A stretch of DNA of 48,342 bases from Candidatus Wildermuthbacteria bacterium RIFCSPHIGHO2_01_FULL_49_22b (GTDB taxonomy: Bacteria > Patescibacteriota > Minisyncoccia > Minisyncoccales > UBA10102), in the NCBI GenBank assembly GCA_001823165.1, contig MHTT01000008.1:1-48342 (forward strand). The letters run 5' to 3'. Position numbers and translations under genes: made by a program. The stretch's first letter is position 1, and each line of letters starts with the position of its first letter. Shown one piece after another: positions 3,001-15,629 of the stretch. Under the pieces are notes generated by a model. It saw nothing but the letters and a program-made list of their open reading frames with translations. It was not told the origin of the DNA and searched no databases.

Positions 3001-4312
3001 CTTAGTTGAAGACGGGGCAGTATGCATTTCGGGCGATGAGCTTTCAGATGAATCAGACGGCCTGTGCGATGCCTCGTCCATAAAGGTCAAGACCGATGTT
3101 CGGGACCTGGACTACGGCATTGCAGAGTTAATGCAGCTTCGTCCGGTGTTCTTCCGCTACAAGGAGGACTTCAAGCCGGACTTTCAGGCAGTGCGGGCCG
3201 GATTCATTGCCGAAGAAATGAACCTGGTTATACCCGAAGTTGTAACGTACGACAGCTACGATGAACACGGAATTCCCAACGGAGATCCTGACGGCATTGA
3301 CTACGGCAAACTGACCGCAGTGCTCACAAAAGCAATGCAGGAACAGCAAAAGCAGATTGAAGAACTGGAGCAATCGCTTCTGACTGTCGCTCAAAACATC
3401 TCTGGCGAACTGGTGAATGTGGACCCGGAATACTTCAGGCAGGGGCTTTCTTCCCTGGGTCTTGCGGTGAACACCAACGGAGTGCTGGAGGTAGACACTC
3501 TCAAAGCAAAAAAGGCGGTATTGGACACCCTTGAGTTAAAAGACCAGCTTACCGGAAAAGTATGGTGCACCTGGATTGAAAACGGAGAATGGCAAAAGGT
3601 GGAAGCAAACTGCGAGCAGATTTCGTACCTGAACGGCCAGCTTGTGATAAACGGGCAGCCCGCGGACTATGACGCCATTGCCGCGGCCAATGGCCTGGTT
3701 TTAGAGCCCCAGCCAGAGGAGCCCGCCCCTGATTCCCTTACCGACACGGTCTCTGATTCCATCTTTGACTCCACTCCCCCCATTATCTCCTTGCTCGGAC
3801 CAAGTTTGCTGGAGATTGAGCTGAACGCAGAATATGTGGATGCCGGAGCTACCGCGACAGATGACGTTGACGGCGACATTTCAGCAAACATTGCAGTAGA
3901 CAACCCAGTGGATACTTCCGTCCTTGGTGCTTATTTCGTCACCTACACTGTGTCTGATGCCGCGGGAAACAAGGCAACGCCAGCGACCCGTACCGTGAAC
4001 GTTGTAGAAGCGCTCTCTGCTCCAGAACCAGCTCTGGAACCAGAGCCAGAACCCCAGGACAGCATGCCTCCGGTCATCACTCTTCTTGGCGAAGCTGTGG
4101 TGGAGCTTGAAGTCGGTGGAATATACGAAGACGCTGGAGCCACCGCGGCAGACGATGTGGACGGAGACATCACTGCAAACATTATTGTCAGCAACCCCGT
4201 AGATACCGCTACTGTTGGCGCCTACACCGTTACCTATATCGTTTCTGACGCGGCCGGTAACGAGGCTGCCCCAGCCGCCCGCACCGTCAATGTCGTACTA
4301 AATCCGATTTAG
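2..4312 (+). CDS. Giant surface/tail-fibre-like protein, 5' partial (frame open to the window edge). Contains GNVGIGT..P repeat modules, a right-handed beta-helix (NosD/pectate-lyase-like) region, an internal peptidase-S74-like intramolecular chaperone domain, a coiled coil and two C-terminal DUF5011/Ig-like repeats.
   Basis: 1432-aa ORF with no stop back to nt 2. Recurrent GNVGIGTASPG/GRVGIGDTTPDA motifs. N/G/I-rich ~22-aa repeats (NNDISSNTNSGI, GNRIASNSSNGIEI, NNYINSNTGDGVRI) typical of parallel beta-helix. DLDYGIAELMQLRPVFFRYKED...GFIAEEMNLVIPEVV...IDYGKLTAVLTKAMQEQQKQIEELE matches the S74 chaperone-of-endosialidase pattern. Two PP(I/V)I(S/T)LLG...YxDAGATAxDDVDGDIxANI...GAYxVTYxVSDAAGN units match the DUF5011 pattern. 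Confidence 0.85.
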   Translation, partial: TSAAVERMRIDSSGKVGIGTATPGALLSVATDGANDAFRIGDNGAGNILTVQNGGNVGIGTASPGTKLEVNLGGVSITAIRALSGGVNNYTAIGIGRTSLEGALAIAAGAGQWSSFATTGDIILRSDTEDLILGARNATGSLRFATGFPDTEKMTILSGGNVGIGDTTPDALLEIVSSGGKNLFALTDTTDGDVFMVNNAGRVGIGDTTPDAALEIVTSGTTDAFHISSTAARDGDLFTITALGNVGIGTASPGVALELGADKSFRITGGTAFPASPSEGQMFFRTDTTQLYVYANAKWQADRTTATKIVAASDSSNEEKADYVADGTNDEVTIEAALAALPAGGGMVFLLEGTYSIGAAIDITQSKVSLVGSGKATILQRAANAIDVIVVGNAGTAYERVIISNLQIDGAKATHTSGANDGIVFNQKITNSEILDTWIHDNAGSGIYLLSGGTSGTANNDNVVRGNKILSNGGYGLVIATYGSRNRIENNDISSNTNSGILFSTGAYNNMAIGNRIASNSSNGIEIGRGEDNMIANNYINSNTGDGVRIAGDGNDTAIIGNYIELNTGDAIDTTTGTQASERHSIVSNLIIDDITLGGTGIHLVSSNRVTGNITINASSNDNYLAGNTISGTITDNGSNNVIQHSSQFKIESTSATVVPLTITADSLAAANGIALSVDGLTTGTGLDISSTSTAGGASGVSKLINLSRSGTNANASHTAYGLYSAVTNTGTTSTNIAGYFSASGATNNYAGIFENGSVGIGDTTPDALLEIVSSGGKNLFALTDTTDGDVFMVNNAGRVGIGDTTPDATLEVVTIGTTDAFHISSTAAGDGDLLTVTALGNVGIGAASPGSKLTIGSGSFDLSSQGSILNVGNSGSDLTDGVWSVARSNNQAQFSVQTFDDAGNTPPVLNLASALSDTIGTYTAVTNTTVLGRIDFQGADGTGFGTGTRIEGVATETFSGSATGAYLSFYTTDTGTNTKDERLRIDQDGGIFMYAMADNLVEDGAVCISGDELSDESDGLCDASSIKVKTDVRDLDYGIAELMQLRPVFFRYKEDFKPDFQAVRAGFIAEEMNLVIPEVVTYDSYDEHGIPNGDPDGIDYGKLTAVLTKAMQEQQKQIEELEQSLLTVAQNISGELVNVDPEYFRQGLSSLGLAVNTNGVLEVDTLKAKKAVLDTLELKDQLTGKVWCTWIENGEWQKVEANCEQISYLNGQLVINGQPADYDAIAAANGLVLEPQPEEPAPDSLTDTVSDSIFDSTPPIISLLGPSLLEIELNAEYVDAGATATDDVDGDISANIAVDNPVDTSVLGAYFVTYTVSDAAGNKATPATRTVNVVEALSAPEPALEPEPEPQDSMPPVITLLGEAVVELEVGGIYEDAGATAADDVDGDITANIIVSNPVDTATVGAYTVTYIVSDAAGNEAAPAARTVNVVLNPI
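500..765 (+). repeat. Intragenic direct repeat, copy 1 (~265 bp) inside the giant surface protein gene
   Basis: accccggacgctctcttggagattgtgtcttccggaggcaagaacc... recurs at offset +1791. About the first 130 nt are identical by eye and the rest is diverged. Confidence 0.9.
2291..2556 (+). repeat. Intragenic direct repeat, copy 2
   Basis: Same sequence as 500-765. It encodes the duplicated module TTPDALLEIVSSGGKNLFALTDTTDGDVFMVNNAGRVGIGDTTPDA. Confidence 0.9.
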
Positions 4313-4382: not shown

Positions 4383-5099
4383 ATGCCAAGAACAAAACCA
4401 GAAAAGGGAAAAATCTACCATATTTTCAACCGTGGCGTAGAAAAGCGGAACATCTTTATATCCGAAGGAGATCGCTGGAGATTTTTGCAGGGGATGTATT
4501 TGTTTAATAATGAAGATTCCACCACAAATCTTCTCTATCGTCTTGAGCAAAGAAAGGGCAAGATGCATTTTGGCATCCTGCGAGATTATATGCAGCGAGA
4601 AGGCGTTAAGCGCAAGCCCTTGGTACGCATTATGGCAGATTGCCTTAAGCATAATCACTTTCATTTTAGCATTGAAGAAACTCAAGAAAACGGCATTTCC
4701 CGTTTTATGCAAAAGCTGGGTATTGGATATACAAAATATTTTAATAAAAAATATGAGCGCGTAGGACCGCTGTTTCAAGGAAAGTTTAAACTGGTAGAGA
4801 TACAAAGCGATGCGCAGCTTATGTATCTTATTGCCTATATTAATGCGATTAACCCCGGCCAAGAGTTAGAGCCAGAACTAAAATCAGTAGCGCAAGATCC
4901 AGAGCAAATCCTTGAGTTTATTCAACATTACCCATGGAGTACTCATTTGGAGTATTTGGGCAAAAGAGATTCTATTATTATAGATAAAGGTGTTGCGGGA
5001 GAATTATTTGGTACCCCAATTGCTTACCGAAAGTTTGTAGAAGATATTGTAAAAGGCAAAAAAAGTTTTGGTTTGTCAAAGAAAGATTTTCTTGAGTAG
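4383..5099 (+). CDS. IS200/IS605-like Y1 (HUH) transposase of the REP-associated RayT type (COG1943-like)
   Basis: YHIFNRGVEKRNIF N-terminus. HUH motif in CLKHNHFHFSI. GPLFQGKFK and the LIAYINAINP Tyr helix. HYPWSTHLEY tail. Flanked on both sides by the same palindrome doublets. Confidence 0.8.
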   Translation: MPRTKPEKGKIYHIFNRGVEKRNIFISEGDRWRFLQGMYLFNNEDSTTNLLYRLEQRKGKMHFGILRDYMQREGVKRKPLVRIMADCLKHNHFHFSIEETQENGISRFMQKLGIGYTKYFNKKYERVGPLFQGKFKLVEIQSDAQLMYLIAYINAINPGQELEPELKSVAQDPEQILEFIQHYPWSTHLEYLGKRDSIIIDKGVAGELFGTPIAYRKFVEDIVKGKKSFGLSKKDFLE

Positions 5100-5101
5100 T
5101 T

Positions 5102-5138
5102 CCTAAATCCGATTTAGTTTTACTAAATCGGATTTAGG
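5102..5138. repeat. REP-like palindrome doublet (family C) immediately downstream of the RayT-like gene
   Basis: cctaaatCCGatttag (5102-5117) and ctaaatCGGatttagg (5123-5138), in the same CCG-then-CGG order as the upstream doublet. Confidence 0.85.
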
Positions 5139-5153
5139 AGAATTAGGAGAATT

Positions 5154-5969
5154 ATGAGAGAAATTTTAGAAAAAGTAAAAAATGGGGTGCTGGACGCGGT
5201 ATTTCCGGCAACCTGCATGGGTTGCGGTAGAGAAGGAAAGTATATCTGCCAAAGGTGCGAAGGTTTTGTAAGCGAAGTTGCTTTCATCTGCCCAGTATGT
5301 GAACAGTCGAGTTTTGCCGGAGAGCGGCACCAAACCTGCAAATCGTTCTATGGTTTTGATGGTTTGGTAAGCATTTGGGAATACGAGGGGCTCATGAAGA
5401 GTTTACTGCATTATATAAAGTACAATGGCATTACCCATGCTGCCAAAGAAACCACGGAGCGCGCATTTGAGGTGATTGGGCGCGACAGAGAACGATTTGG
5501 CGCATTTTTATCTTTTTTGTTATCTCAAGATACTTTTGTGACGTATGTGCCCATGTTCAAGAAAAAAGAGAGAAAAAGAGGGTTTAACCAGGCGGAGATA
5601 CTTGCAAGAGAGCTTGGAAAAATAGCCGGGAAAGAAACTCTTTGCGCCTTAGAGAAGATACATGATACAAAACCGCAGGTTGAGCTGAAGAAAGAAGAAC
5701 GGCTGGTAATCGTACAAGGCGCCTTTCAGACAACATTGCCCGCCTTTGCCGACCTGCCTGCTGGCAAGGTGGGGGCTTTGGCGGGCAGGCAAATTACAAA
5801 TCCAGACAATCAATTATCAATGGTCAATCATCAATGGTCGGCACCGCAGAAAGTGGTGCTGGTAGATGACGTGTGGACCACAGGAGCTACCATGAAAGAA
5901 TGCTGCAGGGTTTTGAAAAGGGCTGGCGCCAAAGAAATATGGGGGCTTACTATCGCAAGAACCCCCTAA
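5154..5969 (+). CDS. comF: ComF-family protein (phosphoribosyltransferase-like competence protein) carrying a ~30-40 aa extra segment
   Basis: N-terminal CxxC...CxxC zinc finger. RGFNQAE, VQGAF and VVLVDDVWTTGAT PRTase motifs. SD aggaga lies 5 nt upstream of the ATG. Confidence 0.85.
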   Translation: MREILEKVKNGVLDAVFPATCMGCGREGKYICQRCEGFVSEVAFICPVCEQSSFAGERHQTCKSFYGFDGLVSIWEYEGLMKSLLHYIKYNGITHAAKETTERAFEVIGRDRERFGAFLSFLLSQDTFVTYVPMFKKKERKRGFNQAEILARELGKIAGKETLCALEKIHDTKPQVELKKEERLVIVQGAFQTTLPAFADLPAGKVGALAGRQITNPDNQLSMVNHQWSAPQKVVLVDDVWTTGATMKECCRVLKRAGAKEIWGLTIARTP

Positions 5970-6040
5970 ATTTTCAATCAATGACCCAATTTCACAATTT
6001 TTCAATTGAACATTAAAACATTGATAATTCATTGAAAATT
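5967..6040. repeat. AT-rich TIR-bounded miniature element (family E), copy 1. It fills the comF-dprA spacer.
   Basis: Begins taaattttcaat (the TAA is the comF stop) and ends cattgaaaatt. aaattttcaat and attgaaaatt are reverse complements. It shares the blocks cccctaaattttcaat, caatgacc.aattt and tgataatt...cattgaaaatt with 43185-43271. Confidence 0.7.
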
Positions 6041-6046
6041 AGTGTC

Positions 6047-6952
6047 ATGGCTGACAGTATAACTAAAGAAAGTCCTCGATACCCAACACTACTCGGTGAA
6101 CTTAGGGACGCGCCAAAGCAGCTGTATTATAGGGGAAATTGGGACGGGATTTTTTCCGTCGAAGGCGGATCCGCCTCTGGCGGAGAAAAATGCCTGGCGG
6201 TTGTAGGCACGCGGAGAATGACCAGCTATGGAAAGCGCATGACCGAGCAGATCGTGGGTGAGGTTGCTGCGGCCGGGGTGACCGTTGTTTCTGGTTTTAT
6301 GTACGGTATTGATGCTGAAGCCCACAAAGCAGCTTTGAGAGCCGGCGGCAAAACCATTGCCGTAATGCCCTGCGGAATTGACGTTGTGCACCCAGAATAT
6401 CAGGCGGACTTATATCAAGAGATTTTAGATACGGGCGGCTTAGTGGTTTCAGAATACGAAGGCACGCATCCTGCTTTGTATTGGACGTTTCCACGCCGAA
6501 ATCGCATTGTAGCAGGCCTTTCAAAGGCAACGCTGGTAGTGGAGGCCGGTGAAGACAGCGGAGCATTGATTACCGCAGACCTTGCTAAAAAATACGGCAG
6601 AAAACTCTTTGCCGTGCCAAATCCTTTAACGAGCGCGGTTTCGCAAGGAGTAACGCGGTTGCTAAAAGAGGGTGCAACGATTGCAAGCAGCGCAGACGAT
6701 ATTTTGAAGTATTTTGGGTTTCGTACGCGGAGTAGGGTCAGACCCTACTCGCAAGTAGGGTCTGACCCTACTCCGCAGATTGCAGGCGAACTTGAGCAAA
6801 AGATTATGCAGGTGCTTTTCAAGGAATCAATGCAGATTGACGCGCTTGCCAGAAAACTTAAGATACCGGCAGCGCAGCTGGGAGCCGCAATTTCCATGTT
6901 GCAGTTGGAAGGATGCATAACAGAAGAACAGGGCAAATTATATGTTGTTTAA
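6047..6952 (+). CDS. dprA: DNA processing protein DprA
   Basis: LAVVGTRRMTSYGKRMT, VVSGFMYGIDAEAHKAAL, FPRRNRIVAGLS and a C-terminal winged-helix-like tail. The ORF is open from TTG 6032 but ATG 6047 is the more likely start. Confidence 0.9.
   Translation: MADSITKESPRYPTLLGELRDAPKQLYYRGNWDGIFSVEGGSASGGEKCLAVVGTRRMTSYGKRMTEQIVGEVAAAGVTVVSGFMYGIDAEAHKAALRAGGKTIAVMPCGIDVVHPEYQADLYQEILDTGGLVVSEYEGTHPALYWTFPRRNRIVAGLSKATLVVEAGEDSGALITADLAKKYGRKLFAVPNPLTSAVSQGVTRLLKEGATIASSADDILKYFGFRTRSRVRPYSQVGSDPTPQIAGELEQKIMQVLFKESMQIDALARKLKIPAAQLGAAISMLQLEGCITEEQGKLYVV
6727..6776. repeat. Family B palindromic doublet translated in frame within dprA
   Basis: gcggaGTAGGGTCaGACCCTACtcgcaaGTAGGGTCtGACCCTACtccgc. 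It is two 8-bp-arm hairpin units and the whole 50-mer is nearly self-complementary. It encodes [17 protein letters not shown] in the linker between the Rossmann and winged-helix domains. Confidence 0.85.
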
Positions 6953-8474
6953 GGTGCAATCTGCAGCAAACTCGGGACTGGAGGCACTCGGGGTGGACAT
7001 TGAAATAAGCGTTTCAAACAGGGGGTTGCCGGGTTTTGACATTGTGGGGCTTCCCGACAAGGCCGTTCAAGAAAGCAAGGAGCGGGTGAGAGCTGCCATT
7101 GGAAATTCAAAAATTGAGTTTCCTCAAAGAAAAATTACCGTAAACTTGGCGCCAGCCGATATTCCCAAAGAAGGCTCTCTGTACGACTTGCCCATAGCAG
7201 TGGGAATTATGGCCTCGGTTTTGCAATATGAGATTCCCCCAAACAGCTTATTTTTGGGAGAGCTTTCTTTAGACGGCAAGCTTCGCCACACAAAAGGGGC
7301 CGTACTTATGGCGCTTTTTGCAAAAGAACAGGGATTTCAAAATGTGTTTGTTCCAGCAGAATCCGCAAACGAGGCAGCTATTATTCAAGGCGTAAACGTG
7401 TACGGAATAAAAAACCTTACCGAAATAGCCGGACTTTTCTTGGGTAAATCTTTTTTGCGGCCCGTTGCTTACCAGAAAAAAGAAGAGCTCACTGAGGATA
7501 TAGAGTTTGACATGGCAGAAGTACTTGGCCAGGAAACCGCCAAGCGCGCCGTAGAGATAGCTGCCGCCGGCGGCCATAATATATTAATGATAGGAAGCCC
7601 TGGTTCCGGGAAAACCATGCTGGCGCGGGCCTTGCCAGGCATTTTGCCAAGGTTAAATGAAGAAGAGTCCTTGGAGGTTACGAAACTCTATTCTATTGCA
7701 GGGAGCATGCCGCCCCGGGGATCTCTTATCACCACGCGCCCTTTTCGCTCGCCCCATCACAGCGTTTCTCAAATTGGGCTGATAGGAGGCGGTCAAAAAC
7801 CGCAACCTGGAGAAATAAGCTTGGCTCACCGAGGGGTCTTGTTTTTAGACGAGTTTAACGAGTTCCCTCGGTCTGTATTAGAAGGTCTCCGCCAACCCGT
7901 AGAAGACGGCGCGCTTACCATTTCAAGAAGCAAAGAACGAGTAACCTATCCTTGCCGTTTTATGTTGGTGGCGTCTGCAAATCCTTGTCCGTGCGGATAC
8001 TTAAATCACCCAAGGAAACCCTGTGTCTGCACTCCTCGAGAGATAAAAAAGTACCGGAAGCGAGCATCCGGCCCTATTTTAGAGCGCATTGATTTGCATG
8101 TTGAAGTGCCGGAGGTTGACGTGGAAGAGTTTCGCGGCAATCAAAAGTCCACGAGCGCCGCAGAAAGCTCTTGTTCTATTCGGGAACGAATGAGCGAGGC
8201 GCGAAAAATCCAAGAAACAAGATTTGCAGAAGAGTCCATCTATACGAATGCAGAAATGAAAAACGCGCATATTAAAAAATACGCCGCACTTTCAAAAGAG
8301 GCCGAGCAGATGGTACTACGGGCTGCGCTTCAATATCAGCTTTCTGCAAGGTCATTTATGAAAATGATAAAGATCGCCCGCACCATTGCAGACCTTGCCT
8401 TTGAGCAACAGATTGGAAAAGAACACATGCTCGAGGCCTTGCAGTATCGCCCCAAGATATATGAGTTGGACTGA
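6942..8474 (+). CDS. comM: YifB/ComM-family Mg-chelatase-like AAA+ ATPase
   Basis: 510 aa. Walker A IGSPGSGKT, Walker B VLFLDEF, a Lon-protease-like N-terminal domain and ALQYRP near the C-terminus. It overlaps the dprA stop by 11 nt. Confidence 0.92.
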   Translation: MLFKVQSAANSGLEALGVDIEISVSNRGLPGFDIVGLPDKAVQESKERVRAAIGNSKIEFPQRKITVNLAPADIPKEGSLYDLPIAVGIMASVLQYEIPPNSLFLGELSLDGKLRHTKGAVLMALFAKEQGFQNVFVPAESANEAAIIQGVNVYGIKNLTEIAGLFLGKSFLRPVAYQKKEELTEDIEFDMAEVLGQETAKRAVEIAAAGGHNILMIGSPGSGKTMLARALPGILPRLNEEESLEVTKLYSIAGSMPPRGSLITTRPFRSPHHSVSQIGLIGGGQKPQPGEISLAHRGVLFLDEFNEFPRSVLEGLRQPVEDGALTISRSKERVTYPCRFMLVASANPCPCGYLNHPRKPCVCTPREIKKYRKRASGPILERIDLHVEVPEVDVEEFRGNQKSTSAAESSCSIRERMSEARKIQETRFAEESIYTNAEMKNAHIKKYAALSKEAEQMVLRAALQYQLSARSFMKMIKIARTIADLAFEQQIGKEHMLEALQYRPKIYELD

Positions 8475-8482
8475 AAAAATAT

Positions 8483-8845
8483 ATGAGAGTACACAATATG
8501 ATAGGAGAGAGAGGGGAGGAGATTGCGCGCCAGTTTTTGGAGAACAAAGGATATACAATTATTGAGTGCAATTACAGGACAAAGAGAGCAGAAATTGATA
8601 TCATTGCAAAACATAAAAATAAACTAGTGTTTGTGGAGGTGCGAACAAAGCACCGCGAACAATACGGAACCCCAGAAGAAACTATTGATTATAAAAAACG
8701 CATGAGATTGAAAAAGAATGCCGCAGCTTATGTCCATCGAAAGAAATATTATGGGCCTTTTCGCATAGACGCCGTATGTCTGGTACTAGATGAGAACGCG
8801 GGGCTCCAGCGGATTAACCACTATGAAAACATTGTGGAAAACTAG
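8483..8845 (+). CDS. yraN: YraN-family (UPF0102) putative endonuclease
   Basis: GERGEEIARQFLENKGYTIIECNYRTKRAEIDIIAK...VFVEVRT...IDAV pattern. ATG 8498 is an alternative start. Confidence 0.85.
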   Translation: MRVHNMIGERGEEIARQFLENKGYTIIECNYRTKRAEIDIIAKHKNKLVFVEVRTKHREQYGTPEETIDYKKRMRLKKNAAAYVHRKKYYGPFRIDAVCLVLDENAGLQRINHYENIVEN

Positions 8846-8905
8846 GCGAGACCAAGGATTCCTTGGTCTCGCCTAAGAGCTAAAACTAAGGAGCTCATGG
8901 GAACA
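8762..8905 (+). repeat. 144-bp direct repeat, left copy (yraN 3' end, hairpin, and start codon of the next ORF)
   Basis: Identical to 10847-10990 except one mismatch (8790 t versus 10875 c) by my alignment. Contains the 13-bp-stem hairpin ggcgagaccaagg-att-ccttggtctcgcc (8845-8873). Confidence 0.9.
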
Positions 8906-9418
8906 AACGAGGCCGAAATGTCTGTTTTCCAAAACAGGACTGTTCTTGGAAGTATTGCACGAGGAATACAAAAGATACCGGGGGGAGAAATAGTGGTGCC
9001 GTTCGGACGCACTCCTTCTGCTGTGGCAATGCAAATTATCAACTATTCACCAGTAGGGATTGTAAGGGCCATTGTGCAGAACATTGGCAAGGGCAGGTTT
9101 GACCAAAGAACATTCTCCCAGATGATGGGACGCGGCATTGTTGGTACTGGACCATATTTATTGGAATGGAGCTTTTTGGAAAAGACCTTATTTCTCTTGA
9201 TTGGCCTACCACAGAAAGGGAACGCAAGTGGCGAATTGAAAAGCCCAAAGAAACTTCAAAGAACGCTTACGCCTTCTCCGCTACGTCCATTCTTGAGAGA
9301 AAAAAAGCAGAAGCCTTTTGCGGTTCCTGCCGGAGCTGGGTTTGGGGAGTTTCCTAACTTTCCTGACTTTCCCGAGTTCCCTGATTTCCCAGAGTTCCCT
9401 GAGTTTACGGGATTTTAG
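8897..9418 (+). pseudogene. Chimeric, frameshifted remnant ORF. Its first three codons (MGT) come from the duplicated start of the downstream Wzy/TPR gene.
   Basis: It starts inside the direct repeat with the same catgggaaca as 10982. The reading frame appears to switch near 9150-9170, where the 9166..9357 frame continues with GKDLISLDWPTTERERKW. It ends in a 9-bp tandem repeat. Confidence 0.5.
9346..9408 (+). repeat. 9-bp tandem repeat, about 7 units
   Basis: gagtttcct aactttcct gactttccc gagttccct gatttccca gagttccct gagtttacg, encoding (E/D/N)FP x7. Confidence 0.85.
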
Positions 9419-9429
9419 AAAAAACCTAC

Positions 9430-9597
9430 TTATTCCTCTATATGTTTTTCAAACTTTTCCTTGTGAGCATTATCATTATCTATTATGTATAACCAGAATA
9501 AAATACCCCCAAGCCACATCCAAAAGCCAGACATACCCCCAAACTTTATGAGCAAGAATAATGAAACAACAATACCAAAAGCTTTAACCCAGCTCAT
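9430..9597 (-). CDS. Small 55-aa two-TM protein, possible holin (below the ORF-track length cutoff)
   Basis: My reverse-strand translation is MSWVKAFGIVVSLFLLIKFGGMSGFWMWLGGILFWLYIIDNDNAHKEKFEKHIEE. It has two hydrophobic helices and a charged tail. A G-rich ggggggagg lies directly upstream, though the spacing to the ATG is short. Confidence 0.3.
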   Translation of the reverse strand: MSWVKAFGIVVSLFLLIKFGGMSGFWMWLGGILFWLYIIDNDNAHKEKFEKHIEE

Positions 9598-9635
9598 ACC
9601 TCCCCCCTACCACCCCTAACCCACCTCGTCAAGCT

Positions 9636-9878
9636 ATGGAACAAAACCACGAACAACTAAACAACATTGAGTGTACCCTCGGAGAAGTTTTGGGGGAAAT
9701 GAAAGGTATAAACGGACATCTTGCTCGTATCAACGGCCGCCTTGACATCCATTCCGACAGAATACGCAATGTTGAAGGCGAACAGAAAGTGCTGAAAACC
9801 AAGGCGGCTATGTTAGGAGGCGGACTTGGGGTTGGCGTTGTGGTAATATGGGAGTGGTTGAAAATGCAATTCAAGTAG
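9636..9878 (+). CDS. XhlA-like small protein (N-terminal coiled coil plus C-terminal TM helix), phage-lysis associated
   Basis: 80 aa. The coiled-coil segment is LNNIECTLGEVLGEMKGINGHLARINGRLDIHSDRIRNVEGEQ, followed by the TM helix AAMLGGGLGVGVVVIWEWL. The architecture matches the XhlA family. No clear SD. Confidence 0.45.
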   Translation: MEQNHEQLNNIECTLGEVLGEMKGINGHLARINGRLDIHSDRIRNVEGEQKVLKTKAAMLGGGLGVGVVVIWEWLKMQFK

Positions 9879-9947
9879 GATTTTCTTGAGGGGACAAGAA
9901 TAACTTGCCCTCTCAATAAAGTTCTTTCAAAAGAAAGGAGGAAGTCA

Positions 9948-10190
9948 ATGTGTCCGTACTGCAAGACCGAGAGCGCCTTGGTCAAAGAAAGAGATAGATA
10001 CGGCCTTTACATTTCATGTCGGGTGTGCGGGTGGCTCAAAGACCTTGGAGTTCCTTCGCCAGACAAAATCCTCGCTTCAGACGAAAGAAGCAAAGGAAGG
10101 AGGGGAATGGTATTTTTGCCCCGCAACGGCAGAAACCCATATTTTCATCTAAAGCGCACAAGGAGGGAAAGGAAGAGAAGAAAGGAGTGA
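9948..10190 (+). CDS. Small zinc-ribbon protein with a very basic C-terminus
   Basis: CPYC...CRVC pair. Strong SD aaggagg lies 7-8 nt upstream of the ATG. K/R-rich tail. Confidence 0.5.
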   Translation: MCPYCKTESALVKERDRYGLYISCRVCGWLKDLGVPSPDKILASDERSKGRRGMVFLPRNGRNPYFHLKRTRRERKRRKE

Positions 10191-10257
10191 ACGAAATGAA
10201 GCTTGAGGCATTGGAGGTTTTAATGCTCACTGACCGAGTGAGGAACGAAGACACGAA

Positions 10258-10773
10258 ATGACTTCTCTCAAGAAGGGCGGGGAAAAGGAGAATAAAAATA
10301 ATCCCCAGTACCTGCCCACCGATTCAATGAAAAATAATATGAACAAGTTTATCTACAGGCCCATTAAGTTTAATCGGATAACCCAGATTTTCGGAGAGAA
10401 CAAAACAGATTACTCCAAACTTGGTATGCTCGGACATAATGGTCTTGATATGGCTACCTGGAATGGGACACCAATATATCATTCTGGTGACTATATGGGT
10501 TATATGAAGACAGAAATTGATGCAATGGGTGGCATAGGAGTAGATATCTATTCTAATACTCCCCAGATTGATGGAAAACGTATCAAATTGCGTTATTGGC
10601 ACTTAAAGCAAGTTGTAGGGTGGGATGGAAAAGAAGTGCGACCAGGACAACTTATAGGTTTTGCTGATAATACTGGATTTTCAACAGGAGACCATTTATA
10701 CTTTGATTTAAAATGTGTAGATGAGAATGACAAAACATCACGAACAATACGGAAGCCCGGAAGAAACCATTGA
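10258..10773 (+). CDS. M23/LytM-family peptidase-like protein (endolysin-like), 3' end running into the yraN-like fragment
   Basis: GHNGLDM (HxxxD) and NTGFSTGDHLYFDL. The usual HxH reads HLY, so it is possibly degenerate. The C-terminus is read out of the yraN-homologous DNA in another frame. Confidence 0.55.
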   Translation: MTSLKKGGEKENKNNPQYLPTDSMKNNMNKFIYRPIKFNRITQIFGENKTDYSKLGMLGHNGLDMATWNGTPIYHSGDYMGYMKTEIDAMGGIGVDIYSNTPQIDGKRIKLRYWHLKQVVGWDGKEVRPGQLIGFADNTGFSTGDHLYFDLKCVDENDKTSRTIRKPGRNH

Positions 10774-10930
10774 TTATGAAAAACGCATGAGACTGCAGCG
10801 AAACGCAAGAGCGTATATTCACCGAACAAAGTACCGCGGCCCATACCGCATAGACGCCGTATGTCTGGTACTAGACGAGAACGCGGGGCTCCAGCGGATT
10901 AACCACTATGAAAACATTGTGGAAAACTAG
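10722..10930 (+). pseudogene. Displaced, duplicated 3' fragment of a yraN-like gene
   Basis: It encodes ...HEQYGSPEETIDYEKRMRLQRNARAYIHRTKYRGPYRIDAVCLVLDENAGLQRINHYENIVEN, parallel to residues ~53-120 of the intact YraN. The N-terminal catalytic part is absent. Confidence 0.8.
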
Positions 10931-10990
10931 GCGAGACCAAGGATTCCTTGGTCTCGCCTAAGAGCTAAAACTAAGGAGCTCATGGGAACA
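10847..10990 (+). repeat. 144-bp direct repeat, right copy
   Basis: See 8762-8905. The hairpin copy is at 10930-10958. Confidence 0.9.
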
Positions 10991-13198
10991 TTTTTTGACT
11001 TCATTATTAGAACAAGTGTTGTCCTTTTGGTGTTCTTGGTTCCTTTAGCGTGGAGCCCCTGGACCTTTGAGGCCTTTGAGTTTTCAAAGCAGTATCTTTT
11101 GTTCTTTTTGGTTCTCTTGGGCCTGTTTGCTTGGATAGCACGCATGGTGCTGGTTGAGCGCGAGGTGCGGTTCAAGAAGACCCCGCTTACCTTCTTTGTC
11201 TTTCTGTTTGTTGCCGCCGCCCTGCTTTCTAGCTTGTTTTCAGCTGACCGCTGGTCTTCTTTGTTTGGGCACTACGGAAGTTTTTCTGACGGACTCCCAG
11301 GCATTCTTGCTTCTGCGGGGGTTTACTTTCTTGTGACCAACGCCGTGCGCCAGCCGCGTTTTCTACTCAAGCCCTTTTTCGCTTCAGCTGCTCTTGCGGT
11401 GTTCCTCGCTTACCTTTCTTTGTTTGGAGTGCTGCCCCAAGCGGGTTTTAACCCGGTAGCGGAAAATTTTGAGAGCTTTTCCGTCTTCCTTGCCTTTCTC
11501 ATTTCTCTCCTTTCCTTTTTTGTCATACGCCCCCAACAAAACCAGCTGCCGTTTGCCGGAACTATTGTTTTGCTGGTTTCCGCTTTTGGCTTACTCCTTG
11601 CGGCGCATGAATCTACGAACTGGGCCGTGGTTTTTGCGGGCCTGCTGCTGTCGCTGTTTGCAGGACTACTGCAACGTTTGTGGACAGGGGAGGCGGGAAA
11701 AATAAGGGGATTGGGGTTGCCTCTGCTGCTTTTGTTCCTGACCTTTGTTGCCTTGCTTTCCCCGGCCTGGCCGGATCTTCCCTGGGCGTTTCCCCTGGAA
11801 CCCGCGCTTTCTCAAAGAATGTCTTGGGGTATTGCCCTTGACACTGTCAGCGACAACGCTAAAAACCTGTTCTTGGGTTCGGGACCCGGCACCTTTGCCC
11901 TGGATGTTTCCCTGCACAAGCCGGTTTCTTTGAATCAAACAGACCAGTGGCAGACCCGTTTTGACCGGCCCTCCAGCTTTTTTGCAGGACTTTTTGCCAC
12001 GACAGGACTCCTTGGTTTTCTCTTGTATCTTGCGCTGCTTTGCTGGTTCTTCCTGGTTTCTCTGGCGTTCTTGAGAAAACAGGAGAGCATGCCTTTTCTT
12101 CTTGGGGCCGCGGTGCTTGCGGCAGGCCAGGTCGCGCATGACCAGATGACGGCGCTCCAGCTTTCTTTTTGGCTGTTTTTGGGGCTCTGCCAGGTTTCCT
12201 GGAAAATTCCTGCCAGGGAGACCCGCTTTTCCCTGCCAAGGACCGCCGAGTTTCAGCTTGCAGCCAGGGCCGCGCTCCTGCTGGTGTTCCTTGCCTCTGC
12301 GGCAGCTTTCTTTTTTGGGAGCCGCCTGTACGCAGCAGATATGAAGTACGCGGCTTCCGTGAAGGCCGCGCCGTATTTTCCTGCAGCGGGCATTGAACAG
12401 GGACAAGAAGCCGCAGGATTGAATCCCTGGCAGGCAGAATACAGGATTTTCCTCTCCCGGCTTCACCTGCAGCGCGCCCTGGCCGAATTGCAAAAGCCAG
12501 AAAACCTCCGCAGCAAAGAGCAAGTTTCCAAGGACGTGCAGCTTGCCATTGCATACGCGAGGGGAGGCAGTGTGGAAGACCAAAGGATCGTGGGCGCCTT
12601 GGAGCTTAGTTCAGCCAGGGTCGCCTCGTGGGAAACGCTCGGAACAGTGTACAAAAACATTGCGTCAGCTCCCGGGGCCTTGGATTGGGGTATCCGTTCT
12701 TTTGAGACAGCGATTGCCCTGGAACCCGCAAATCCCGTTCTCCACACTGAATTGGGAAAGCTGTATGTCAAAAATGAGCAGTTTGACAAGGCGCGAGAGC
12801 GCTTTCAAAAAGCGATTGAATTAAAGCCCGACTACGCGCAGGCCCGAATGCAGCTTGCCTTGATTGCGGAAAAAGAGGGGAATGCCGGCAAAGCCATTGG
12901 GCAGCTCCATGACCTCGTTGTCCGCTTTCCTCGGGATTCAGAAACCCTGTTCCAGCTGGGAAGATTGTATTATAATGAAGGGGAGGTTGCCGGGGCGATT
13001 TCCCAATTTGAACGGGTGCTTGCAGGAGCCCCCAATCATTCCAACGCCTTGTTTGCCTTGGGTCTTGCCTATGAAAGCCAGGGGAGAATCCAGGAGGCCG
13101 CGCAGAAGTTTGAAAGGGTCTTGCAGCTGAACCCCGGAAACGAGGAAGTCCGCCGAAAGTTGCAAGAGCTTGGCAGGGAAAGTATAATACGGGAATAG
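10982..13198 (+). CDS. Polytopic O-antigen-ligase-like (Wzy_C) membrane protein with C-terminal TPR repeats
   Basis: About 10-12 hydrophobic helices. LFLGSGPGTFALDVSLHKP motif. The C-terminal third has TPR-like repeats (AIALEPANPVLHTELGKLY, AIELKPDYAQARMQLA, VLQLNPGNEEVRRKL). Confidence 0.8.
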   Translation: MGTFFDFIIRTSVVLLVFLVPLAWSPWTFEAFEFSKQYLLFFLVLLGLFAWIARMVLVEREVRFKKTPLTFFVFLFVAAALLSSLFSADRWSSLFGHYGSFSDGLPGILASAGVYFLVTNAVRQPRFLLKPFFASAALAVFLAYLSLFGVLPQAGFNPVAENFESFSVFLAFLISLLSFFVIRPQQNQLPFAGTIVLLVSAFGLLLAAHESTNWAVVFAGLLLSLFAGLLQRLWTGEAGKIRGLGLPLLLLFLTFVALLSPAWPDLPWAFPLEPALSQRMSWGIALDTVSDNAKNLFLGSGPGTFALDVSLHKPVSLNQTDQWQTRFDRPSSFFAGLFATTGLLGFLLYLALLCWFFLVSLAFLRKQESMPFLLGAAVLAAGQVAHDQMTALQLSFWLFLGLCQVSWKIPARETRFSLPRTAEFQLAARAALLLVFLASAAAFFFGSRLYAADMKYAASVKAAPYFPAAGIEQGQEAAGLNPWQAEYRIFLSRLHLQRALAELQKPENLRSKEQVSKDVQLAIAYARGGSVEDQRIVGALELSSARVASWETLGTVYKNIASAPGALDWGIRSFETAIALEPANPVLHTELGKLYVKNEQFDKARERFQKAIELKPDYAQARMQLALIAEKEGNAGKAIGQLHDLVVRFPRDSETLFQLGRLYYNEGEVAGAISQFERVLAGAPNHSNALFALGLAYESQGRIQEAAQKFERVLQLNPGNEEVRRKLQELGRESIIRE

Positions 13199-13230: not shown

Positions 13231-15552
13231 ATGAAACTCATTCTCTGGCTTGAAAGGATTTCAAAGGGAAGCTTGTACGCTGCGGTGCTTCTTTTGCCCC
13301 TTTGGTTTTTGCCCTTTACGCAGAATATGGTGATATACCAAAAGCAGACCCTGCTCTTGGTGCTGGTGTTTGTGGGGCTGGTTGCGTGGCTGGCCAAGGC
13401 GGTGAACCAAGGCGAGATTCGTCTTAGGCTCTCTCTGATATTTATTCCCGCCTTCCTCCTGCTTTTGGGCGCGGGGGTTTCCACCCTGCTTTCTCTGTGG
13501 GTTTCCTCCAGTTTCTGGGGCTGGCCCCTGGATGTTACCGACAGCTTCCTGACATTGGCCGCTTTCGTCCTGTTTTCCTTTTTGGCATTCCAGGTTGTCC
13601 AAGACCACAAGGAGCTGTTTCGTCTGCTCTTGGTCCTGCTGGTTTCCTCGGGGCTTGCCGCGCTGTATGCTTTGGCGCAGGTCTACGGGGCGTATGTCTT
13701 GCCCTTTGCCTTTGCGAAATCTTCTGTTTTCAACACCATAGGGAACAGCAATGATGTTTCCCTGTTTGCCGCCGTGCTTCTGCCTCTTGCCCTGGCCCTG
13801 GCATTTGTCGCAAAGCGGCAGCTTCGCTTGGCCCTATGGGTTGTAGCAGGTATATTATTGGCATGCGTTGTGCTCTTTAACTTTCAGACGGCCTGGATTG
13901 TTCTTATAGCAGGACTCTTGGTGCTTTTGGCTTTTGGCATATGGAACATGCAAAAGAGAGCCGAGTCGGGGTGGATTTCCTTTCCCATGGCCCTGATTAT
14001 TGCGGCCGTGTTCTTCCTGACATTTCAGGTTTCTCTGCCTGGAGCTCCCAAAGACCTGCCGGTTCAGGTTTCCTTGAGCCAGCGGGCAACGCTCAATGTC
14101 GCAAAAGACGTGCTTAAAGAACGGGCGCTCTTTGGAGGGGGTCCCGGAACCTTTTCCTTGGAGTATGCAAGGCACCGGCCAGCAGAGCTGAACCAGACCA
14201 TATTTTTTGGCACAAGGTTTGCCTCGGGCGCGACAGAATTGTTTGACTGGTTCGTGACCAAGGGAGCGGTCGGCTTGCTCTTGCTCCTGGCGCTTTTTGG
14301 GGTCTTAAAGGTGGTTGGAGCTAAATCCCTGGTGGATTTTCGGGGTGAAAAGGTTGTGTGGATGCTGCAGCTGGGAATCTTTGCCTCGCTTGTCGCCCTG
14401 GTGGTTTCCCAGTTTTTGTATCCTTCCTCCTTTCTGCTCTGGTTTGTCTTTTGGGTACTGGCTGCGGCCCTGGCGCTTAGCGCGGCCCCAAAGACCCTGC
14501 ACTTTACGGTTTCCACGTACCCGTTTCTTGCCTTAGCGTCTTCGTTCGTGTTCTTGGTTGTTTTTGTCTTTGGGCTCGGGCTCTTGTTTCTCGGAGGGCA
14601 AAAGTATGCAGCTGAAGTTCTGTACCTGCAGGGAGCAAAGGCCTCAGCGGCAGGGGATTTGCAAGGAGCCATTGCCAAGATTGGTTCTGCTGCCAACCTG
14701 AATGGCAGCGTTGATATCTACTGGAGGGACCTGGCCCAGCTGTACCTGCTCAAGATGAATCAGGTTGTTGGCGCCGCAGGCCTTTCTCAAGAGCAAAAAC
14801 AGCAGCAGACGCAGACAGCAATATCCAACGTGGTTAGAGCGGCCCGGGCCGCGACCAGCGCAGCTCCCGCAAACGTTGCAAACTGGAATGTGCAGGGATT
14901 TGTGTACCGTTCCCTCATTGGCATTCAGGGAGCGGAAGCGCTGGCGCAGGAGGCCTACCTGAAGGCGGCAGAACTGGAGCCAACTTCTCCTTTCCCTTGG
15001 ACCGAGCTGGCGCGTTCCCAGGTAATGCAGGCCAAGAACCTTGGCAGACAGCAAGGCGTTTCGCAGATTCAGGGCCAGATGCTGGAGAATGCCTTAGAAA
15101 ACCTGCAGAAGGCCTTGGCGTTAAAGTCCGACTATGCCCCGGCCCATTACCTTTTGGCCGTGGTGTATGAGCAACAGGGAAAGGTTGAAGAAGCCGTTGC
15201 CAAGCTTGAGGAAACAAAGCTCATTGCCCAAAACGACGTGGGCCTTGCCTTCCAGCTTGGAGTCATCTACTGGCAGCGCCAAGAATGGGATAAGGCGGCC
15301 CTAGAACTGGAACGCGCAAGAAGAATTAATCCCAACTATTCTAACGCAAGATACATTCTGGGTTTAGTGTATGATGTGAAAGGCAACAAGGAAGCGGCGC
15401 GCCAGGAGTTTTCTGCGGTCTGGCGCCTGAACCCCGACAATGAAGAGGTGCAGCGCATTCTGGAAAACCTGGAGCAGGGGCTCCCTGCTTTAGAGGGTAT
15501 TACTCCAGCACAACCTCCGGTGCAGGAAACTCCGCCTGAAATCCAGAAGTAA
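13231..15552 (+). CDS. Paralogous O-antigen-ligase-like (Wzy_C) membrane protein with C-terminal TPR repeats
   Basis: Same architecture as the preceding gene. LFGGGPGTFSLEYARHRP motif. TPR repeats (ALALKSDYAPAHYLLAVVY, ARRINPNYSNARYILGLVY, VWRLNPDNEEVQRIL). Confidence 0.8.
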   Translation: MKLILWLERISKGSLYAAVLLLPLWFLPFTQNMVIYQKQTLLLVLVFVGLVAWLAKAVNQGEIRLRLSLIFIPAFLLLLGAGVSTLLSLWVSSSFWGWPLDVTDSFLTLAAFVLFSFLAFQVVQDHKELFRLLLVLLVSSGLAALYALAQVYGAYVLPFAFAKSSVFNTIGNSNDVSLFAAVLLPLALALAFVAKRQLRLALWVVAGILLACVVLFNFQTAWIVLIAGLLVLLAFGIWNMQKRAESGWISFPMALIIAAVFFLTFQVSLPGAPKDLPVQVSLSQRATLNVAKDVLKERALFGGGPGTFSLEYARHRPAELNQTIFFGTRFASGATELFDWFVTKGAVGLLLLLALFGVLKVVGAKSLVDFRGEKVVWMLQLGIFASLVALVVSQFLYPSSFLLWFVFWVLAAALALSAAPKTLHFTVSTYPFLALASSFVFLVVFVFGLGLLFLGGQKYAAEVLYLQGAKASAAGDLQGAIAKIGSAANLNGSVDIYWRDLAQLYLLKMNQVVGAAGLSQEQKQQQTQTAISNVVRAARAATSAAPANVANWNVQGFVYRSLIGIQGAEALAQEAYLKAAELEPTSPFPWTELARSQVMQAKNLGRQQGVSQIQGQMLENALENLQKALALKSDYAPAHYLLAVVYEQQGKVEEAVAKLEETKLIAQNDVGLAFQLGVIYWQRQEWDKAALELERARRINPNYSNARYILGLVYDVKGNKEAARQEFSAVWRLNPDNEEVQRILENLEQGLPALEGITPAQPPVQETPPEIQK

Positions 15553-15562
15553 ACAAGAGACC

Positions 15563-15586
15563 ATGTGTGAAACCTGGTTTCACACA
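15563..15586. repeat. Family D palindrome, copy 1, 11 nt after the stop of the TPR protein
   Basis: atgtgtgaaacctggtttcacaca is identical to 42247-42270. The arms tgtgtgaaacc/ggtttcacaca are perfect reverse complements. Confidence 0.9.
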
Positions 15587-15629
15587 ACTTGTTGAAAACG
15601 TGGGGAAAAGCCCGGTTTGACATGAGGGC

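Follow-up and report, generated by a model that had tools for sequence, protein, structure and literature searches.

In Escherichia coli, the element e14 and phage 21 insert in icd and rebuild the 3′ end of this target gene. To our knowledge, few phage remnants have been described in the genomes of Parcubacteria (CPR). Foreign DNA may also enter chromosomes by homology-facilitated illegitimate recombination (HFIR; de Vries and Wackernagel, 2002; Prudhomme et al., 2002, both as cited in PMC3784515) or by single-crossover integration at short homologies (Amarir-Bouhram et al., 2011; PMC3240628). Where circular molecules integrated by single crossovers through one-sided or short homology, 109–950 bp of the homologous segment were found duplicated next to the foreign DNA (PMC3240628), and transformation can make duplications through alternative pairing (PMC3784515).

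The window analyzed here is a stretch of 48,342 nt from a groundwater member of the Parcubacteria, Candidatus Wildermuthbacteria bacterium RIFCSPHIGHO2_01_FULL_49_22b (contig MHTT01000008.1), in which the 3′ end of yraN is duplicated on either side of an insert (Table 1). The insert consists of decayed DNA of phage origin, which has no integrase and retains part of a lysis module. It reveals no phage attachment site and most likely arrived by ordinary recombination.

Table 1. Features of the yraN locus and its insert (positions in the window).
Feature	Position	Strand	Basis or remark
Resident yraN (UPF0102 nuclease-like), intact, 'A' allele	8483..8845	+	Pfam UPF0102, E 2.7e-26
Resident yraN codons 55–93	8645..8761	+	73% match to diverged foreign piece
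Left 144-nt copy: yraN codons 94–120, palindrome 8843–8875, SD + ATG GGA ACA	8762..8905	+	T at 8791
12-mer CGCATAGACGCC common to A and B yraN alleles	8762..8773	+	Putative homologous crossover; equivalent 10847–10858
Pseudogene fragment, T7-gp16-like internal virion protein, ~residues 1010–1100 of ~1400	8906..9258	+	Homologue comparison
9/18-nt tandem repeat (FPEFPDFPEF...), ORF173 tail	9347..9406	+	Without homology
55-aa ORF, two hydrophobic segments	9430..9597	-	Hydropathy
XhlA-like protein, 80 aa, intact ORF; coiled coil and C-terminal TM segment	9636..9878	+	
Zn-ribbon ORF, basic tail, strong SD	9948..10190	+	Preceded by AAAGGAGGAAGTCA
M23 peptidase (endolysin-type) gene remnant	10339..10729	+	Pfam PF01551
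Foreign 'B' yraN fragment, codons 55–93, from related Parcubacterium	10730..10846	+	
Right 144-nt copy, A-type; palindrome 10928–10960	10847..10990	+	C at 10876
Multi-pass membrane + TPR gene, downstream, intact	10982..13198	+	First three codons duplicated at 8897–8905

A repeat search combined with pairwise alignment delimited a direct repeat of 261 nt (8645–8905 and 10730–10990, spacing 2085). In its right 144 nt, 143 positions are identical, the sole mismatch being a T in the left copy and a C in the right one; in its left 117 nt, the copies agree at 85 positions (73%). The first-pass annotation of this DNA had correctly described 144-bp direct repeats with one mismatch around a 2085-bp insert. 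It also saw a diverged yraN-like stretch to the left of the right repeat, which is indeed present but measures 117 nt rather than about 125 nt. The contents of the repeat were likewise found as described: approximately the last 28 codons of yraN, a hairpin (a 33-nt palindrome), and, behind an SD, the first three codons of the downstream gene. This hairpin has two sites in the window, both in the repeat copies, where shuffled sequences predict none. It has no T-run, which rules it out as a canonical terminator, and Rfam, promoter, and terminator scans of 8300–11300 gave nothing above chance. The label 'Wzy/TPR' given to the downstream gene holds for the TPR part, which Pfam supports, but not for the Wzy part, as the N-terminal 500 aa match neither Wzy_C nor any other Pfam family. 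Directly upstream of yraN are the competence genes comFC-like, dprA, and comM, and yraN orthologues follow comM in 78 of 80 related genomes.

An assembly artefact could be ruled out, as many independent groundwater and sediment metagenome assemblies contain the same arrangement at 99.9–100% identity. It is also present in k-mer contigs of eight public runs, in which the word depth of the insert is close to that of its flanks; across these assemblies and runs, the T/C difference between the copies is constant. The k-mer contigs of public runs break at the repeat; in one sample (ERZ4903072), L005 and L018 are compatible with an empty site but are no proof of one. The comparison with sister genomes that had been proposed as a check bore out the expected uninterrupted junction: in the closest related genomes checked, dprA, comM, yraN, and the membrane/TPR gene follow one another without interruption. 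No cargo homologues were found at the 80 related-genome loci, nor was a second yraN-like region found within 8 kb in the 78 related genomes with yraN.

The first ORF of the insert, ORF173 (8897–9418), borrows its ATG GGA ACA start from the repeat. When read through a frameshift near 9150–9160, it matches P0001 with 53% identity, and homology decays beyond ~9258. The fragment itself has no direct PHROG match; its homologues P0001 (E 3.8e-8), P0003, P0004, P0012, and P0019 match phrog_6651 'internal virion protein' (down to E 5e-15). An SLT domain is present in P0003, full-length homologues combine an N-terminal SLT domain with phrog_6651, and one homologue matches 'internal virion protein D' of Desulfovibrio phage ProddE. 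In total, 3,532 homologues were found; among the best matches listed, most are 1,000–2,000 aa long and are aligned at approximately residues 600–1,900. Forty IMG/VR contigs (12–57 kb) encode such homologues, with up to 69% identity, and three of the 40 have an M23 homologue downstream on the same strand. By homology, ORF173 derives from the interior of a T7-gp16-like internal virion protein and carries a frameshift; the homologues agree with its earlier description as a frameshifted fragment with borrowed start codons. About 90–120 residues (~7%) of the virion protein are left in the window, without the ~1,000 N-terminal residues, and the tandem repeat in the ORF173 tail is probably scar sequence. 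Apparent virion-protein homology reaching into the core (tblastn, from 8756 or 8885) was attributable to run-on across a stop codon and to chance matches.

The remaining cargo includes lysis-type genes. The 80-aa ORF scores below the cut-off for Pfam XhlA (PF10779; E 0.002, 18.7 bits, cut-off 34.7) and is 39% identical (E 2e-17) to a Pfam-annotated XhlA gene in contig L181, which adjoins an M23 gene 72% identical to that of the window. Together with a C-terminal TM segment in its hydropathy profile, this similarity makes the ORF a probable XhlA homologue, in accordance with the first-pass call of an XhlA-like coiled-coil/TM protein. That call of a zinc-ribbon ORF with a strong SD was also borne out (AAAGGAGGAAGTCA upstream of 9948); its family matches are weak (Lar_restr_allev, E 0.0012). 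Phage contig L146 has small Zn-ribbon ORFs close to its M23 gene. The 55-aa ORF does have two hydrophobic segments and is at most a candidate holin. It has no Pfam or PHROG match and no homologue, and it lies on the strand opposite to the XhlA-like and M23 genes; related cassettes carry their holin downstream of M23.

The M23 ORF as listed (10258–10773) extends out of frame into the yraN piece. Its most likely start is 10339, where all homologues start, rather than 10258. It matches its Pfam family with 38 bits (cut-off 28.7), profile positions 89–96 being missing. HxxxD is kept (HNGLD) and, as previously reported, HxH reads HLY (GDHLYF), although H-x-H is present in all seven aligned homologues. 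The remnant also lacks the ~50 C-terminal residues found in all seven, and the C-terminal NGYxGA motif is lost. By descent, the window M23 gene is a member of this family, although it probably does not encode a working peptidase. Its relatives include a gene in an XhlA–M23–holin–SLT cassette (72% identity, L181) and one in a 51-kb contig with portal and capsid genes (60%, L179); XhlA and M23 are adjacent in L181 and L167. No close M23 relatives were found in IMG/VR, and the cargo DNA had no match among GenBank phages.

The phage origin of the insert follows from the virion-protein homologues in 40 viral contigs and from M23 and XhlA relatives in phage order, and its decay from the frameshift, the 3′ truncation of M23, and HLY in place of HxH. 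No insert ORF matches an integrase or recombinase family, as the first-pass annotation had stated, and the flanks are comM/yraN and the membrane/TPR gene. Its description of the decayed lysis end of a phage is right as regards decay, phage derivation, and a partial lysis module in phage order. The left border cuts a gene for a ~1,400-aa virion protein at approximately residue 1,010, with microhomology of at most a few nt at the joint, and on the right the yraN-like piece cuts M23 at ~10726–10734. Because both borders cut phage genes, they are best read as illegitimate joints and not as element ends.

What adjoins M23 is not resident sequence. Against the yraN of sister genome L057, the diverged piece reaches 89.7% identity and the resident gene 77%; the 73% given above compares the diverged piece with the resident yraN. 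The piece is also ~93% identical to the full-length yraN of co-occurring relatives. These values of ~90–93%, against 73% to the resident gene, identify the piece as a cellular allele of a relative. In contig L011, the yraN piece continues as B-type and leads into a spacer alignable with the one downstream of yraN in L057; in the window, the right copy turns from B-like to A-like within the 12-mer, and L011 departs from the window just after it.

Our preferred explanation, which we hold with modest confidence, is that the insert is debris of a T7-like podophage of Parcubacteria, non-autonomous, which was joined to the 3′ half of a relative's yraN and recombined into the chromosome. The route and order of events that we infer begin with the entry, by transformation or transduction, of a hybrid molecule of phage DNA and a relative's chromosomal DNA. 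This hybrid could have arisen either within a decayed prophage or through illegitimate recombination while the relative was being infected. The foreign yraN piece would then have recombined with the resident yraN, with the crossover in the shared 12-mer, and the phage end would have been joined illegitimately right after codon 3 of the membrane/TPR gene (8905/8906). This joint is 144 bp further downstream than the homologous crossover, which would leave a resident stretch of that length on both sides. Neither an integrase nor an att site would be needed, and with yraN and the 5′ region of the downstream gene kept intact the insert would be close to neutral and able to spread. One junction in a homologous stretch, another without homology, and a foreign B allele fit homology-facilitated illegitimate or short-homology integration, and the ComFC-like, DprA, and ComM genes make natural transformation a candidate route of uptake. 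Several points weigh against this explanation. A match of 12 nt is short for exchange by RecA, and an integrase, too, would leave direct repeats around foreign DNA. HFIR in its classical form mostly removes recipient DNA, and the duplications in PMC3240628 arose from circular molecules. The L011 arrangement (cargo, fully B-type yraN′, methylase) differs, and a larger island may exist. The donor molecule alone, either M23′ joined to yraN_B in a relative or a phage–host hybrid, was not seen.

The first-pass annotation had instead proposed an attP in the form of a yraN 3′ end carried by the element itself, which would make yraN-3′ an attachment site. A temperate phage would have integrated site-specifically, with the 144 nt as att core, and later deletions would have taken the integrase and most genes. 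Such an origin would account for near-perfect direct repeats around phage-derived DNA, for a lysis module that adjoins the right repeat, and for the absence of the insert from relatives, and it resembles the elements that rebuild the 3′ end of their target (e14, phage 21 in icd). However, att-type direct repeats are not diagnostic, since homology-based recombination gives them too, and we consider this origin unlikely on several grounds. M23 is cut by the yraN-like piece and the left repeat abuts the middle of the 1,400-aa virion protein gene; any deletion would need to begin no more than 15 nt from the core edge. The piece resembles the cellular yraN of relatives and is followed by a cellular-type spacer in L011. 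The suggested check for an attP-like core in viral contigs, run as an exact-pattern scan of IMG/VR for the core hairpin and a degenerate yraN coding motif, returned 0 contigs with either. Up to 10 kb from the virion protein gene, no homologue of yraN was seen in any of the 42 phage or phage-like loci retrieved with that gene (40 from IMG/VR). Furthermore, the site is not reused in 78 genomes, and the source phages are T7-gp16-type podophages, a mostly lytic group. In another model, capture of a phage fragment at a break duplicated 261 bp of resident sequence locally, and DNA from a relative later converted the first 117 nt of the right-hand copy. This would agree with the inter-copy homology, which sets in abruptly at yraN codon 55 and stops abruptly at codon 3 of the following gene. 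We regard this model as highly improbable: because M23 sequence starts at 10729, a conversion tract of 10735–10846 would have 5 nt of left homology, and in-place divergence of a simple duplication is ruled out, as it cannot yield a 27% difference beside one of 0.7%.

Two further readings start from L011. The window form could be a deletion derivative of a larger L011-type island (cargo, B-type yraN′, restriction-modification methylase, and more) bounded by two 144-nt cores, the remainder having been lost by recombination of the internal yraN′ with the distal core or with empty-site DNA. Three contigs of sample ERZ4903072 fit such a derivation: L005 stops precisely at the core, L011 begins with a T-type core followed by cargo, fully B-type yraN′, and an Eco57I/N6_Mtase methylase, and L018 begins with a T-type core followed by the membrane/TPR gene. 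As L011 is unbroken at 10858, that sample seems to contain the window-type right junction rarely or not at all. But L011 is just 3.2 kb long and is extended by no other contig, and it could be a chimera across 129 nt shared with the species-B yraN. The methylase cassette occurs in many unrelated contexts and adjoins yraN in none of 33 metagenome loci. In the search for an extension of L011, these loci and 190 proteins included none beside yraN and none more than 93% identical, the identity of the nearest methylase; no close relatives of the L011 methylase were found in IMG/VR. The same illegitimate joints would still be needed at both cargo borders, and this derivation appears improbable to us. 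It is possible, if rather doubtful, that the locus records interspecies exchange of Parcubacteria DNA by transformation or transduction, with three haplotypes segregating in one aquifer population: insert-free, with the short insert, and with a longer form that includes the restriction-modification methylase. If true, this would be a natural CPR example of foreign DNA gained by one-sided homology and partly removed via insert-free DNA.

For annotation, these results mean that yraN-3′ does not belong among recorded phage attachment sites: phage genes are cut at the borders, the IMG/VR scan gave no attP, and the 78 genomes showed no recurrent use. Nor should an annotation present the locus as a lysis cassette or prophage. 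More generally, the cargo links uncultured 40–50-kb T7-gp16-type podophages with XhlA–M23 lysis modules to Yanofskybacteria-like Parcubacteria hosts, and under our preferred explanation the locus would be a sequence-level trace of recombination between diverged alleles of neighboring species in a CPR population.

Among known systems, the Bacillus PBSX-type xhlA–xhlB–xlyA cassettes resemble the window in having an XhlA-like protein upstream of an endolysin, as do L181 and L167. The window endolysin, however, is an M23 peptidase and not an amidase, is truncated, and has lost one zinc ligand, and the downstream holin of related XhlA–M23 cassettes is missing. With T7 gp16, the internal virion protein D, the locus shares a fragment from the gp16-like family, whose full-length members carry an N-terminal SLT domain. 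Like cryptic or defective prophage remnants, it combines structural and lysis genes in the order known from phages with frameshifts, truncations, and a lost catalytic residue, has no integrase, and is absent from sister genomes; in contrast to them, it spans 2.1 kb only, both borders cut phage genes, and its right border is joined to a foreign cellular gene fragment, not to an att site. The locus shares with e14 and phage 21 a direct repeat over the 3′ end of a protein-coding gene and an insert with a diverged gene fragment at one of its ends. The target gene of those elements is completed by the phage-borne copy, and the host fragment that it displaces is distal, beside intact element genes and the integrase, whereas in the window the intact yraN is fully resident-type, the fragment truncates a phage gene, and neither an integrase nor an attP form was found. 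Classical HFIR usually deletes recipient DNA and the window shows a duplication; its anchor is a diverged allele (73%) resolved in 12 nt of identity, in an event deduced from sequence. As in HFIR and short-homology single-crossover integration, homology anchors one side and a non-homologous joint closes the other, a duplicated stretch flanks the insert (109–950 bp in PMC3240628), and competence genes are present in the genome.

A repeat search of the window returned a direct repeat of 261 nt, at 8645-8905 and 10730-10990 (spacing 2,085 nt), in which the right 144 nt (8762-8905 and 10847-10990, the core) differ at one position only, T at 8791 vs. C at 10876, whereas pairwise alignment gives 73% identity for the left 117 nt. 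The one-mismatch 144-bp repeats, the 2,085-bp insert, the diverged yraN-like stretch to the left of the right core, and the ORFs between the copies are therefore as the first-pass annotation had described them. The same arrangement occurs, at 99.9-100% identity and with the T/C difference unchanged, in numerous independent assemblies of groundwater and sediment metagenomes, and the word depth of the insert is close to that of its flanks in eight public runs; it is thus confirmed to be neither an assembly artefact nor due to chance.

Features in and around the repeat (window coordinates)
Feature	Position	Strand	Content
1,432-aa ORF	14-4312	+	Beta_helix/NosD, Peptidase_S74, and Ig-like/HYR domains
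Competence block	4383-8474	+	Y1_Tnp-like ORF (weak match), then ComFC-like (Pribosyltran and double Zn ribbon), DprA, ComM; directly upstream of yraN
yraN	8483-8845		Pfam UPF0102; last 28 codons inside the 144-nt repeat
33-nt palindrome			within the 144-nt repeat
Downstream membrane/TPR gene	10982-13198		SD and first three codons (ATG GGA ACA) inside the 144-nt repeat

Among species representatives, the nearest are Parcubacteria/Patescibacteria MAGs, including a Yanofskybacteria bin, with ComM 76-83% identical to that of the window. The order dprA-comM-yraN is kept in related genomes and, in the closest relatives, is followed directly by two membrane/TPR genes, so that these relatives do have the uninterrupted junction for which the first-pass annotation had suggested looking. 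Homologues of the cargo ORFs were found in none of 80 related loci, and of the 78 related loci with yraN none has another yraN-like stretch within 8 kb, so the insert is lineage-specific and the site is not in recurrent use. Of the label "Wzy/TPR" previously given to the downstream gene, TPR is recognized by Pfam, at the C-terminus only, and Wzy is putative: the N-terminal 500 residues (10982-12481) have no Pfam match. Just past the second membrane/TPR gene (about 15545-15596), the window differs in length by a few tens of bases from four contigs (L008, L009, L017, and L018). At the left end of the window, the 1,432-aa ORF could encode a surface protein or be another phage-derived gene; Peptidase_S74 is the endosialidase chaperone typical of phage tail spikes.

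At the left end of the insert, ORF173 (8897-9418) has no family match on its own in Pfam or PHROG. However, when read across a frameshift near 9150-9160, it is 53% identical to a homologue, P0001, that matches PHROG 6651 "internal virion protein." An exhaustive search yielded 3,532 homologues, the best of those listed being mostly 1,000-2,000 aa long, and the matching stretch lies deep within them (e.g., residues 1005-1178 of 1410). Full-length members of this family combine an N-terminal SLT domain with PHROG 6651; one of them, from a phage-like contig of 24 kb, has a match to the "internal virion protein D" (T7 gp16 type) of Desulfovibrio phage ProddE. The virion protein domain is also encoded by 40 IMG/VR contigs (12-57 kb), with identity of up to 69%. 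Only residues ~1010-1100 are left in the window, and homology past ~9258 decays into small deletions. The tail of ORF173 carries a 9/18-nt tandem repeat (9347-9406) encoding FPEFPDFPEF, and several assemblies and k-mer contigs break directly past it, at 9426-9460. In an unrelated metagenome (ERZ23486233; L136, a 566-nt contig), a second homologue, P0002, has 70 N-terminal residues from a Y1 (IS200-like) transposase fused in frame to a truncated fragment of the ORF173-type domain (76% identical), and is further debris of the same phage family.

Two further cargo ORFs are of the lysis type. The 80-aa ORF, called XhlA-like at first pass, has 39% identity (E 2e-17) to an XhlA gene annotated by Pfam; in an XhlA-M23-holin-SLT cassette, that gene immediately precedes the closest M23 homologue (72% identical). 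An M23 with 60% identity is encoded on a 51-kb contig that also has portal and capsid genes. In three of the 40 viral contigs, an M23 gene lies 3' of the virion protein gene, in the same orientation, and in one of these an XhlA-like coiled-coil/TM ORF immediately precedes M23 and a two-TM ORF follows it; the cargo gene order is the late-region order of related phages. All seven aligned M23 homologues begin at Met-28 of the window protein (10339), have H-x-H where the window has the H-L-Y already noted at first pass, and run ~50 residues further, with a conserved NGYxGA motif. The homology of the window M23 ends at 10726-10734, exactly at the start of the yraN-like sequence, and the native protein is predicted to be inactive on peptidoglycan. 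The proposed lysis-type cassette is thus supported in part: XhlA and M23 have homologues in phage order, but the holin found 3' of M23 in relatives is absent, and the 55-aa two-TM ORF, on the opposite strand, has no homologue in Pfam or PHROG. These comparisons establish the phage origin and the truncations of the cargo, which is a stump, with a virion protein gene cut at the left joint and M23 cut at the right. It is very probably phage debris. By descent, the insert is a defective phage remnant, and the earlier reading as decayed phage DNA is supported by the phage homologues, the frameshift, the truncations, and the lost H-x-H residue.

The yraN fragment has a different source. Its protein is ~80% identical to YraN of two sister genomes (L055 and L057) vs. 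73% to the resident one, and 10730-10846 shares 89.7% DNA identity with L057 yraN vs. 77% for the resident gene there, at a genome-wide level of 73% judged from comM. Every run examined contains full-length yraN genes of other organisms that are ~93% identical to 10730-10860 and whose upstream sequence encodes the LVFVEVR catalytic motif; across the eight runs (X1-X8), at least two co-occurring relatives have such an intact gene. Run X3 contains a further hairpin and gene-start variant, with 13 differences over 10939-11086. In L011, a contig from sample ERZ4903072, the cargo is 100% identical and the yraN fragment keeps the foreign (B) type up to its own stop codon, followed by a spacer that aligns with the L057 yraN-downstream spacer (80.9% over 256 nt) and then by an Eco57I/N6_Mtase-type methylase. 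The window copy, in contrast, is B-type up to the 12-mer CGCATAGACGCC (8762-8773 and 10847-10858), common to both alleles, and of the resident (A) type beyond, so the right copy is a mosaic. The cellular origin of the piece and this mosaic structure are established, and the piece is the chromosomal allele of a relative, not phage-borne, contrary to the first-pass proposal that an element had brought its own yraN 3' end (attP).

Three ERZ4903072 contigs meet at the core: L005 ends exactly there, L011 begins with the T-type core, and so does L018, a 41-kb contig that goes on from it to the membrane/TPR gene. At its simplest, this reads as a single way in with two ways out: an empty-site haplotype and the long L011 form. 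Alternatively, one genome could contain a second core and hence a larger island, from which the window form would have arisen by deletion, or the assembly of L011 could be chimeric, joined across the 129 nt that it has in common with a species-B yraN. The methylase (L011:2228-3238, loci L022-L054; complete length 513 aa) is found widely among groundwater CPR genomes (70-93% identity), in many different neighbourhoods, and behaves like a mobile restriction-modification cassette.

The first-pass annotation had also identified the yraN 3' end as an attachment site. No integrase was detected in or beside the insert by ORF, Pfam, and PHROG searches; an exact-pattern scan of IMG/VR, along the lines it had suggested, found neither the core hairpin nor a degenerate motif for the yraN coding sequence in any viral contig; the 42 phage or phage-like loci found via the virion protein (40 from IMG/VR) contain no yraN homologue; and IMG/VR and GenBank phages contain no close DNA-level relatives of the cargo. 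Phage genes are cut at both putative ends of the element. Nothing but the direct repeat is att-like, and such a repeat is equally produced by recombination through short homology. Among E. coli integrants of DNA with one-sided homology, most had the homologous segment duplicated over 109-950 bp (PMC3240628), and transformation can produce duplications via alternative pairing (PMC3784515). The insert is therefore probably a product of recombination and not of an att site.

In such a recombination, phage DNA fused to chromosomal DNA of a related Parcubacterium, at the joint between truncated M23 and B-type yraN, would have entered the lineage by transformation or transduction, in one event or two. 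The foreign yraN piece would pair with resident yraN and the exchange resolve in the shared 12-mer, while the phage end would be joined without homology past codon 3 of the downstream gene. Because this illegitimate joint would lie to the right of the crossover, at a distance of 144 bp, the stretch between them now stands in two copies; and since neither yraN nor the 5' region of its downstream neighbour is disrupted, the insert would be nearly neutral. We give this complete account, from phage debris on a relative's chromosome to recombination without an att site, slightly better than even chances. The locus links gp16-type podophages of an uncultured family, equipped with XhlA-M23 lysis modules, to Parcubacteria hosts, and marks a spot for studying between-species recombination in a CPR population. 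Elements such as e14 and phage 21 reconstitute the 3' end of the gene they target, but the likeness of the insert to them is only superficial; its mechanism most resembles the trapping of foreign DNA via one-sided homology.
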